Below, one piece after another: positions 18,672 to 19,165 of a stretch of 64,000 bases of DNA. The DNA is from a virus (taxonomy: Duplodnaviria; Caudoviricetes). Position 1 is the first letter of the stretch. Each line of letters starts with the position of its first letter. The notes under the pieces are model-generated. The model saw nothing but the letters and a program-made list of their open reading frames with translations, searched no databases and was not told the origin of the DNA. The stretch spans positions 256,001 through 320,000 of the IMG/VR virus record IMGVR_UViG_3300011989_000257; one strand, 5' to 3'. The translations under genes were made by a program, and so were the position numbers.

Positions 18672-18784
18672 TTGGTAAGAAGAGATTTGCACTCTTGAAG
18701 ACTCCGAAGAGTCACATCAAGCACGAACTTGATGCCCATTTGTCTACATCAGTCTCTCGACTGTTCTCCTCTGGTACTTACCAA
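18672..18784 (-). ncRNA. tRNA-like RNA with D-loop hairpin (twin A)
   Basis: 8-bp acceptor, 7-bp anticodon stem with TTCGTG loop, UUCG variable arm, T loop TGCAAAT. Confidence 0.7.
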
Positions 18785-18989
18785 AAGGTGGTTTTTATAC
18801 TTGTCCACCACAAGGTGTATTGTGTAGTATTGTAAAGGCTGATTCATTTTTCAGAGCCAATTTAATGGTAAAGGACATCTGCTATATTTCATACAGTTGT
18901 ATGTTTGTCGCAACCTCACTTTCCTCGCCAACCTTTACTGCCGATTGCACCTGAGCATTTATACTACATTAACGCTTAACTGATACTCG

Positions 18990-19123
18990 TTGGTGAAGGT
19001 GAATTTGCATCACCGAAGACTCCGAAGAGCCACATTACTCACGAAAGTAATGCCCATTTGTCTACACCTATCATTTCATAAGCCACAACCGACTCTGATA
19101 GTTTCTCCTCTGGTATTCACCAA
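18990..19123 (-). ncRNA. tRNA-like RNA with D-loop hairpin (twin B)
   Basis: Paralog of twin A with compensatory stem changes. Confidence 0.7.
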
Positions 19124-19165
19124 AAGGTGGTTTTTCTGTTTGTCCACCACAAACAATTAATTATG

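Follow-up and report, generated by a model that had tools for sequence, protein, structure and literature searches.

The window analyzed here, a stretch of 64,000 nucleotides from a 412.5-kb virus record, holds two tRNA-like RNAs, both encoded on the minus strand. Unit A (18671..18784) runs from U-1 at 18784 and U1 at 18783 to A73 at 18672 and C74 at 18671, and unit B (18989..19123) from U-1 at 19123 and U1 at 19122 to A73 at 18990 and C74 at 18989; a third copy lies some 106 kb away in the same record (G000:C1:168080-168204). Unit A is delimited by covariance model R1 (139.8 bits), by its minimum free energy (MFE) cloverleaf and by alignments A1 and A2, and unit B by the same model (116.5 bits) and its MFE fold.

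Architecture of the two units and their neighbors

The original prediction of twin RNAs is borne out in its details. Units A and B share the blocks UACCAGAGGAGAA and UGUAGACAAAUGGGCAU, separated by a variable hairpin (the second block, a 17-mer, occurs exactly twice in the window against 0.3 expected), a UUCGUG loop on a 7-bp arm, a CUC-UUCG-GAG variable arm and a UGCAAAU T loop. The stems differ by compensatory changes, as predicted for the anticodon-like arm (CAUCAAG/CUUGAUG versus CAUUACU/AGUAAUG) and the T stem (AAGAG/CUCUU versus GGUGA/UCACC), and so do the acceptor stems (UGGUAAG/CUUACCA versus UGGUGAA/UUCACCA). Each unit comprises an acceptor stem of 7 bp (8 bp with U-1:A73), a D stem of 3 bp, a T arm of 5 bp and a long variable arm capped by a UNCG-type loop, and the cloverleaf with its predicted D-loop hairpin is the MFE fold of both copies (z -2.8 and -1.8). 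In unit A this hairpin, CAGUC-GAGA-GACUG with a GNRA tetraloop cap (18750..18763, minus strand), is inserted between G15 and R18; in unit B, alignment A1 and the fold place an enlarged insert of 34 nt, a two-part hairpin, at 19068..19101 on the same strand. A similarly long D-loop insert is also present in L080. A GUG triplet occupies register 34-36 in both units, at 18722..18724 (minus strand) in unit A, where it forms the 3' side of the UUCGUG hexaloop, and at 19040..19042 (minus strand) in unit B.

A leader containing GUGGUGGACAA...AAAAACCACC does precede each unit, but the simple hairpin originally proposed for it is better described as two interlocked helices, and the pairing pattern indicates that it is probably an H-type pseudoknot. 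Leader A (18787..18814, minus strand), which ends 2 nt before U-1, combines S1 CUUG/CAAG and S2 GGUGG/CCACC with an A-rich loop 3, UAUAAAAA; leader B (19126..19155, minus strand) combines S1 UGUUUG/CAAACA with the same S2 and a loop 3 GAAAAA. Among 44 distinct leaders, the fourth pair of S1 is U-A in 10, C-G in 22 and G-C in 12, with zero mismatch, and the fifth pair of S2 is G-C in 41, U-A in 2 and A-U in 1.

Between the units lies a conserved spacer RNA of about 165 nt (18817..18980, minus strand), recovered by nhmmer at six related loci with E values of 1e-35 to 1e-42, and four pairs of its outer stem are compensatory. Upstream of both units, a tRNA-Met(CAU) (19165..19246, minus strand), is called by ARAGORN and scores 44.7 bits with Rfam; its variable arm is paired and its T loop reads UGCAAAU. 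A synteny map places this tRNA at the head of the unit array in most related loci, across which the order tRNA-Met, units, GOLLD-like RNA is conserved. The nearest promoter-like box upstream of the ncRNA block is TATCTTTGCA (19373..19382, minus strand), a motif matched 35 times where 10 matches were expected, with 29 of the 35 falling on the minus strand. A search downstream of this box to position 16900 found no minus-strand terminator, and there is no sizeable minus-strand ORF across 17580-19400.

The large ncRNA candidate that the units were said to adjoin begins 7 nt after the end of unit A. Its match to RF02032 (74.8 bits, E 4.6e-19, model positions 1-416), which is below the gathering score of 150, leads us to call it GOLLD-like; it spans 17877..18663 on the minus strand, with a 3' domain at 17877-18298 and a 5' domain at 18299-18663. 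Both halves are conserved in 13-14 related loci, a unit stands 7-10 nt ahead of the 5' domain in 14 loci, and another tRNA follows downstream of the GOLLD-like RNA. GOLLD RNAs are large RNA-only nanocages; to our knowledge they are always located among phage tRNAs, and we know of no cargo or partner that has been identified for them. The units also occur in other settings: solo loci far from GOLLD carry their own promoter and terminator, one unit sits between tRNA-Ile and tmRNA without an adjacent GOLLD, and in L040 the unit is placed downstream of GOLLD.

Covariation and spread of the family

Because two copies alone are weak evidence, covariation was tested at the family level. In 49 units from viral contigs, 96.7% of the helix cells pair, whereas slid controls reach about 40%, and both sides have changed in 24 of 33 pairs; in 112 distinct metagenome units the corresponding values are 98.9% and 26 of 33. 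All six helices of the cloverleaf with inserted hairpin covary over more than 130 distinct sequences, which upholds the earlier suggestion that selection acts on a non-standard fold. The D-loop hairpin (helix 3) has both-side changes in four of its five pairs and, in 91 of 121 units, a GNRA cap. Covariation is also seen in the 5-bp variable arm, in the viral as well as the metagenome set, and this arm has a GNRA cap in 0 of 112 units.

The core is that of a tRNA, as the name given to the units implied: U8, A14, G15, G19, C48, C56 and A58 are invariant and U54 is conserved. All 121 units compared have A73 and C74, 117 of these 121 have U-A as pair 1:72, and the D-stem pair 11:24 is C-G (91 units) or G-C (28). 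At the elbow, positions 18 and 55 covary, with A/G in 99 units, G/U in 21 and one exception; this swap is the sole departure from the conserved tertiary nucleotides of tRNA in what is otherwise a four-arm cloverleaf. In this family the tRNA L-shape accommodates a helix with a GNRA cap inside the D loop as well as an exchange to A18/G55 at the elbow. Three elements, the GUR triplet, the D-loop residues GAGAA/UGU and the pairs C27-A28/U42-G43, remain invariant while the stems drift, which argues for selection on more than a cleavage site.

As anticipated, the units fall outside known families, neither having an Rfam match at E<=10, RF00005 (tRNA) included. A permissive Rfam scan of 17500-19300 left them uncovered and returned one spurious cspA match (E 0.27), and ARAGORN made zero unit calls on the window, on L002, or after in-silico deletion of the D hairpin. 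Its silence on the deleted versions is explained by a residual D loop of about 18 nt and an odd anticodon arm, both outside its model. Members score 58-145 bits with the family covariance model, compared with 15-38 bits for the real tRNAs that it cross-detects. Our literature searches found no description of this family, and we conclude that these RNAs, found in the 412-kb phage and in related phages, have not been described before. The family is restricted to phages, with about 30 viral contigs and more than 120 metagenome contigs, and its genes are missed completely by the annotation tools Rfam and ARAGORN; among 185,579 species genomes it is present on a single contig, in a horse-faeces MAG. 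Some units stand alone, others form arrays with up to five members, and paralogue types are kept across phages whose tyrosyl-tRNA synthetases (TyrRS) are only about 60% identical.

The anticodon-like arm and a probable link to tyrosine

The arm in the anticodon position occurs in three lengths, 20 nt (111 units), 17 nt (17 units) and 18 nt (5 units). In 111 of 133 units a 6-nt loop closes a 7-bp stem; the closed arms as a group have stems of 6 to 7 bp and loops of 4 to 6 nt, and the canonical arrangement of tRNA, a 5-bp stem and a 7-nt loop with U33 and a purine at 37, was found in 2 of 133. Two units of L064 have a 5-bp stem and the loop CUGUAAA, which is the exact tRNA-Tyr loop. Whatever the arm length, nucleotides 10-8 from its 3' end, which correspond to anticodon positions 34-36, read GUG (110 units) or GUA (23) in all 133 parsed units, and the preceding base is C in 111 and C or U in 118. 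In 126 of 133 units position 33 holds C, G or A, the equivalent of position 37 is a base-paired C in 89, and the top pairs of the stem covary. With its stem closed in this way, the arm has neither U33 nor a purine at 37 nor a loop of 7 nt, and it is probably not a decoding arm.

Three other readings of the units were considered and rejected. Short frames (AUG/GUG-UAG and others) that could encode a small peptide cross the arm, but its changes are compensatory for pairing and leave no ORF of useful size. Excision of the D hairpin with three extra nucleotides, as an intron, yields AGGUGCU, without U33 or a purine at 37. As for the conserved D-loop AGGAG acting as a Shine-Dalgarno-like ribosome bait, AGGAG lies upstream of only 4.7% of 364 phage ORFs, and its residues include A14 and G15.

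The family appears to derive from a class II tRNA, most probably tRNA-Tyr. This ancestry is drawn from the series of anticodon arms and not from overall similarity: aligned with the phage tRNA-Tyr(GUA), the CUA suppressor and tRNA-Met(CAU), the units show no convincing similarity beyond the T-loop and 3'-end motifs. An A73 discriminator and a long variable arm, both expected of bacterial tRNA-Tyr, are present in the units; bacterial TyrRS prefers G1-C72, and there the units have U1-A72 instead. A candidate partner is encoded in the window, a phage TyrRS (54064..55353, minus strand; TIGR00234, 329 bits; PF00579 plus an SYY C-terminal domain). TyrRS was found in five of the seven unit-bearing records searched, these being related phages and so not independent, and the two negative records are fragments 52-64% complete. 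The phage also encodes a member of the CCA-adding enzyme family (near G000:C1:242412-242819) and already has a standard tRNA-Tyr and tRNA-His. The gene next to TyrRS matched DUF2828 and DUF7788 only, and a Pfam TROVE search of the phage genome, made for a link to Ro60, gave nothing at E<=0.1.

Two further observations concern the tRNA repertoire of this genome, which includes an amber-suppressor (CUA) tRNA with a Tyr-like body as well as many other odd tRNA-shaped RNAs.

Possible roles and comparison with known systems

The best explanation, held with moderate confidence, is that the units are non-decoding mimics derived from tRNA-Tyr and matured as tRNAs are. They would be transcribed from a phage promoter as parts of a long ncRNA operon, in the order tRNA-Met, pseudoknot-unit B, spacer RNA, pseudoknot-unit A, GOLLD-like RNA and tRNA. 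RNase P and RNase Z would then excise them, given that the conserved U-1 and C74, the intact elbow and the 12-bp acceptor/T helix all fit these enzymes, and a CCA-adding enzyme would complete their 3' ends; the cut that releases unit A would at the same time generate the 5' end of the GOLLD-like RNA. The pseudoknot lies only 2 nt away from where RNase P would cut and might interfere with that enzyme. Being unable to decode, the units would imitate tRNA by means of their acceptor end, their elbow and the G34-U35 that they display. Our preferred mechanism, put forward tentatively, is that the units, which retain A73, the long variable arm and G34/U35 as determinants, bind phage-encoded or host TyrRS and are possibly tyrosylated by it, the product being a Tyr-accepting or TyrRS-titrating RNA held off the ribosome. 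However, the closed loop may block the read-out of G34/U35, and the phage TyrRS may be there just to serve the tRNA-Tyr(GUA) and the CUA suppressor.

Among the alternatives, the units could be mere processing punctuation, signals for RNase P and RNase Z that free the GOLLD-like RNA, the spacer RNA and the neighboring tRNAs from a single precursor, and without function once excised. The short and regular distance to the GOLLD 5' domain in 14 loci, the conserved U-1 and C74 on an intact elbow, and the single promoter-like box with no terminator found after it would all suit such a role. Ordinary tRNAs would suffice for it, however, and the block already has a tRNA-Met upstream, with another tRNA after the GOLLD-like RNA; as many as five units in a row would not be needed, some units stand alone at a distance from GOLLD under a promoter and terminator of their own, and the invariance of GUR, GAGAA/UGU and C27-A28/U42-G43 despite stem drift calls for more, so that we regard this reading as unlikely. 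Less probable still is that the units serve as decoys or sponges against a host defence or toxin directed at tRNA-Tyr or at tRNAs with GUN anticodons (the queuosine family), a rigid closed loop showing G34-U35 to a nuclease or tRNA-modifying toxin that cannot productively consume it, so that real tRNAs are spared. The invariant GUR in anticodon register, the YGUN-like context created by C or U before the triplet in 118 of 133 units, and multi-copy arrays on strongly promoted ncRNA operons are in keeping with a decoy; phage tRNAs with altered anticodon loops reportedly evade anticodon nucleases, and a retron-linked effector reportedly targets tRNA-Tyr. Yet no cognate nuclease is known from any host, 14 units of GGUAA type do not fit YGUN, and the conservation of the D-loop hairpin and the pseudoknot is left unexplained.

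The position strictly next to the GOLLD 5' domain suggests instead an accessory of the nanocage, attached or docked through the GNRA-capped D hairpin or the loop and serving as a cargo or display module. GNRA caps are found on the D hairpin in about three quarters of units and on the variable arm in 0 of 112, and tRNAs have been proposed as covalently linked cage cargo in a cryo-EM preprint (10.1101/2024.12.08.627333). We nevertheless find an accessory role improbable, as the solo loci and the tRNA-Ile/tmRNA unit lack an adjacent GOLLD, the L040 unit lies downstream of GOLLD, and neither a receptor nor a complementary loop was identified in GOLLD. That the units decode, as Tyr or His isoacceptors or as readers of unusual or extended codons with an exotic anticodon arm, is very improbable. 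GUA or GUG does stand in register, the anticodon stem-loop of two L064 members is entirely that of a canonical tRNA-Tyr and the phage encodes TyrRS, but 131 of 133 units lack a 7-nt loop, 126 of 133 have C, G or A at position 33, the paired C at the position-37 equivalent in 89 units belongs to a stem whose top pairs covary, and standard tRNA-Tyr and tRNA-His are already in the phage. Finally, tandem arrays of varying copy number could recall tRNA pseudogenes decaying after duplication in a tRNA island, a view effectively refuted by covariation: compensatory change keeps 97-99% of base pairs intact across a set of over 130 distinct sequences, residues of the loops and junctions do not vary, and paralogue types persist across phages with TyrRS about 60% identical.

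To return to tRNA-Tyr-derived mimics, the most far-reaching version, which we consider unlikely, is that the units accept tyrosine, are excluded from the ribosome and, together with the phage TyrRS and CCA-adding enzyme, form a private aminoacyl-RNA system organized with the GOLLD nanocage. If true, such a system might act, for example, as a tyrosine donor for a non-ribosomal reaction, or as a regulator of or sink for TyrRS. A dedicated and strongly conserved tRNA mimic, probably non-decoding, on the 5' side of a GOLLD-like RNA is a concrete candidate for its partner or cargo. Taken together, the units, the TyrRS, the amber suppressor and the odd tRNA-shaped RNAs suggest that huge phages of animal guts remodel the tRNA pool extensively.

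Among the closest known systems, bacterial class II tRNA-Tyr (GUA) shares with the units a D stem of 3 bp in which 13·22 is unpaired, a variable arm that is long and paired, A73, the G34-U35-R36 register and the residues U8, A14, G15, G19, C48, U54, C56 and A58, as well as the loop CUGUAAA in the two L064 members. Unlike it, nearly all units close the loop to 4-6 nt on a stem of 6-7 bp; the units also carry a D-loop hairpin, U1-A72 rather than G1-C72 and usually G55 compensated by A18, and they are missed by the Rfam tRNA model and by ARAGORN. Among non-decoding RNAs, YrlA-type Y RNAs of bacteria and phages, in which a tRNA-like domain sits on a Ro-binding stem, and the tRNA-like domain of tmRNA resemble the units in mimicking the acceptor, T arm and elbow, and they are handled by tRNA enzymes, as the units would be. 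The units, by contrast with YrlA Y RNAs, lack a Ro-binding handle and end in a plain acceptor stem, and by contrast with the tmRNA domain they retain full D, anticodon-like and variable arms; the Rfam scan of 17500-19300 gave no Y-RNA or tmRNA match on them. The mascRNA of MALAT1 is likewise a tRNA-like fold beside a large ncRNA, whose end is defined by RNase P and RNase Z excision, as would be the case for the units, but it is eukaryotic, lies 3' of its lncRNA and has no long variable arm, arrays or conserved triplet in anticodon register.

In published GOLLD and ROOL loci, the neighbors are ordinary tRNAs, for example a Met-tRNA upstream or a tRNA-Phe in the linker (10.1101/2024.12.08.627333; PMC12990946; PMC5737381). 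The window resembles them in having a GOLLD-type RNA within a phage tRNA island and a tRNA-shaped gene immediately upstream, and differs in that this neighbor belongs to a dedicated non-decoding family also found away from GOLLD. A tyrosine-accepting tRNA-like structure, the BMV-type TLS-Tyr of plant RNA viruses, is described in PMC10870377 and PMC11791061 as a viral tRNA-Tyr mimic without a canonical anticodon loop and with extra helices, two traits that it has in common with the units, and by analogy it is a conceptual precedent for a putative non-decoding TyrRS substrate. TLS-Tyr forms the 3' end of an RNA-virus genome and has a pseudoknotted acceptor arm, whereas the units are free-standing genes of a dsDNA phage with a normal acceptor and a true cloverleaf, and the two have no sequence relation. 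The units are internal genes in which the acceptor is a plain helix and the pseudoknot a separate upstream module. As a tRNA-Tyr-type mimic, the family would have no earlier report from DNA phages.

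The twin units and their family

The twin RNAs lie on the minus strand of the window, where ARAGORN makes 39 tRNA or tmRNA calls; from U1 to A73, unit A occupies 18783-18672 and unit B 19122-18990. Each begins with a leader, GUGGUGGACAA...AAAAACCACC, and UU, then an acceptor stem of 7 bp (8 bp counting U-1:A73), U8, A9 and a 3-bp D stem (CCA/UGG), whose large loop consists of G-A-G-G-A-G-A-A, a hairpin and R-U-G-U-A-G-A-C-A-A-A; G26 comes next. The anticodon-like arm is a 7-bp stem capped by UUCGUG. It is followed by U-G, a 5-bp variable arm with a UUCG cap, UUC, a T arm (5-bp stem, loop UGCAAAU) and the acceptor 3' strand, leading to A73 and C74. 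Pairwise alignment gives 80% identity between the twins, with compensatory differences in the stems, and RNAfold predicts a cloverleaf plus extra hairpin for both.

Exactly three units are present in the 412,514-bp virus record, which is rated complete and of which the window covers G000:C1:256001-320000; the third (unit C) is at G000:C1:168080-168204. With a two-block DNA pattern, IMG/VR yielded about 30 true loci, many with 2 to 5 tandem copies, and the metagenome collection at least 120 contigs; in 185,579 species genomes the pattern turned up on a single contig, from a horse-faeces MAG.

In the alignment of 49 viral-contig units, 96.7% of cells are paired (slid controls 32-44%) and 24 of 33 pairs have changed on both sides; for 112 distinct metagenome units, in a model-fitted alignment, the values are 98.9% (controls 29-44%) and 26 of 33. 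Pair counts in both alignments support all six helices, including the D-loop insert hairpin. The family and its fold are firmly established, and the original prediction of tRNA-like RNAs with an extra D-loop hairpin, whose stem covariation reflects selection on the fold, is borne out. A family covariance model separates members (58-145 bits) from genuine tRNAs (15-38 bits) by a clean gap; that it cross-hits the latter shows the architecture to be tRNA-like. Its best matches after the units are of the tRNA-Met(CAU) type (28-38 bits).

The units were also expected to fall outside known families, and this holds: a permissive Rfam 15 scan of window 17500-19300 (E<=10) gave no match over them, tRNA model included, and matched the two flanking tRNAs. 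ARAGORN did not call the units in the window, and we found no account of the family in the literature on GOLLD, ROOL, huge phages and tRNA-like RNAs.

The tRNA core and its variants

Columns without variation include U8, A9, A14, G15, G19, C48, C56, A57, A58, A73 and C74. The D-loop purine two bases 5' of the conserved ACAA covaries with the second T-loop base (A/G 99, G/U 21, one exception); these two bases make up the 18:55 elbow contact, which locates the inserted hairpin between positions 15 and 18. Pair 11:24 of the D stem switches cleanly between C-G (91) and G-C (28). The D hairpin bears a GNRA cap in 91 of 121 units, while the variable arm is capped by UUCG, UUAG or similar, and by GNRA in 0 of 112; this difference hints that the D hairpin makes a tertiary contact.

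Two members have an additional GNRA-capped insertion, a second hairpin, at a T-stem bulge. Divergent members on the horse-faeces contig are devoid of the D hairpin; they retain a long D loop, containing AGGAG...GG, and an unchanged UUCGUG arm, and have a canonical T loop, UUCAAUU. Some family members show UGUA, UAGUA or GGUAA loops. Loci with such variants are L126:304-461 (+), L068:4801-4958 (-) and L049:2371-4671 (-).

Leader, GOLLD-like RNA and probable operons

The leader shared by the twins is better read as a probable pseudoknot than as the hairpin originally proposed. It is present in 65 of 191 distinct upstream contexts (about a third), and is usually absent when the immediate upstream neighbor is a tRNA or another unit. 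Among 44 distinct leaders, the fourth pair of the first helix (NUUG/CAAN) is U-A in 10, C-G in 22 and G-C in 12, without mismatch. Within its 7-nt loop, GGUGN pairs with a downstream NCACC, the variable pair being G-C (41), U-A (2) or A-U (1). The strand between the helices ends in five to seven A. For the two helices to coexist, the RNA must fold into an H-type pseudoknot, in which loop 3 is A-rich; the pseudoknot ends 2 nt ahead of U-1. It might protect the 5' end as a cap or serve as a recognition module, both roles being guesses.

The large noncoding RNA proposed beside the twins is GOLLD-like: RF02032 matches window 17877-18298 over the full model length (74.8 bits, E 4.6e-19), below the gathering score of 150. 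Counting a 5' domain of about 365 nt upstream, whose conservation extends to 13 related phage loci, the RNA spans 17877-18663 (-). In several relatives the GOLLD region contains a tRNA (Ser, Leu or Asn). The order in related phages is tRNA-Val, tRNA-Ile, an optional unit, tmRNA, tRNA-Met(CAU), one to five units, an optional conserved spacer RNA of about 150 nt, a pseudoknot-unit, the GOLLD 5' domain 7-10 nt further on, the GOLLD 3' domain (sometimes with an embedded tRNA) and tRNA-Ala.

The tRNA-Met(CAU) at 19165-19246 (-), of a type found at the head of the unit array in most related phages, has a paired variable arm, an unusual T loop (UGCAAAU), a mismatched 1:72 and a unit-like A73-C74. The spacer between the twins (18817-18980 (-), about 165 nt) is highly conserved, with nhmmer matches (E 1e-35 to 1e-42) in six further phage loci. 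Four compensatory pairs occur in the outer stem of its predicted fold, and it probably represents one more small structured RNA. At 17739-17862 (-), a tRNA scored by Rfam (42.9 bits) and left uncalled by ARAGORN has a UUGCGA anticodon loop interrupted after position 37, the canonical intron position, by about 54 nt; a group I intron would be far longer.

The promoter-like box TATCTTTGCA nearest to the twins is at 19373-19382 (-). It occurs 35 times in the window, against 10 expected, with 29 matches on the minus strand (for example 19719-19728 and 15781-15790), and fits the Bacteroidota -7 consensus, TAnnTTTG. This fit, weak Shine-Dalgarno use and 34.5% GC suggest a Bacteroidota host. As no terminator-like site was found on the minus strand down to 16900, and no sizeable minus-strand ORF across 17580-19400, the twins and the GOLLD-like RNA probably form one transcript.

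Unit C belongs to a solo operon (G000:C1:~167990-168380 (-), corresponding to L002 1383-1765 (-)), which opens with a promoter, TATATCTTTGCA. Next come an RNA of about 150 nt that a 10-bp helix (UAAGUAAGGU/ACCUUACUUA) closes, the pseudoknot with unit C, a further odd tRNA-like RNA and a hairpin terminator. The further tRNA-like RNA (85 nt, 5-bp stem, GUUCUAU (UCU) loop) is called by neither ARAGORN nor Rfam. Orthologues of unit C reside in an operon of the same make-up, distinct from the GOLLD-linked one.

Possible functions and relation to tRNA-Tyr

The anticodon-like arm measures 20 nt in 111 units, 17 nt in 17 and 18 nt in 5. Nucleotides 10-8 from its 3' end are GUG (110) or GUA (23) in all 133 parsed units; being fixed from that end, the triplet keeps the register of 34-36, and length varies only on the 5' side. 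The preceding residue is C in 111, G in 14, U in 7 and A in 1. Covariation extends to the top pairs of the stem, the counterparts of 32:38 and 33:37, so the loop is truly closed. Most members are very likely unable to decode, and a role as decoding tRNAs is unlikely; so is a pseudogene origin, given the selection on the fold.

Conserved U-1, C74, elbow and acceptor/T helix make it reasonable to suppose that the units would be matured by RNase P, RNase Z and a CCA-adding enzyme. The phage has a member of the CCA-adding enzyme/poly(A) polymerase family (G000:C1:242412-242819 (-), PF01743, 90 bits, 475-aa open frame), as well as a full-length tyrosyl-tRNA synthetase (TyrRS; window 54064-55353 (-), TIGR00234 329 bits plus C-terminal domain). 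Beside the latter, a 560-aa protein (55654-57336 (-)) matches DUF2828 and DUF7788 only; a whole-genome search for Pfam TROVE (Ro60) gave no match.

Among four possible functions, we rank first that of a TyrRS ligand or substrate, as A73, the variable arm and G34/U35 are retained and the phage encodes the enzyme. Of the six other unit-bearing viral records searched, four have a TyrRS orthologue (60-81% identity) and the two without are fragments 52-64% complete; these phages are mutually related, which makes the co-occurrence weak backing for the link. Pure processing punctuation for the GOLLD-like RNA ranks second; the separate operon of unit C and its orthologues indicates that the unit is more than an appendage of GOLLD. 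Behind these come a decoy that would draw off a nuclease or toxin targeting tRNA-Tyr or tRNAs with a GUN anticodon and, last, a partner or cargo of a GOLLD cage.

By direct reading, the phage tRNA-Tyr(GUA) (window 40154-40240 (-)) has C1-G72 and C8, and a CUA (amber) suppressor (15506-15597 (-)) has a class II body, G1-C72, A73 and an anticodon stem nearly identical to that of tRNA-Tyr(GUA); TAG is the terminal stop of only 31 of 364 long ORFs of the genome. The units show no sequence similarity to either tRNA, and their pair 1:72 is U-A in 117 of 121; both facts speak against simple membership in tRNA-Tyr. A tRNA-Tyr ancestry is suggested by two units of locus L064, in which a 5-bp stem carries CUGUAAA, the canonical loop of tRNA-Tyr, and by the family's A73, long variable arm and 3-bp D stem.
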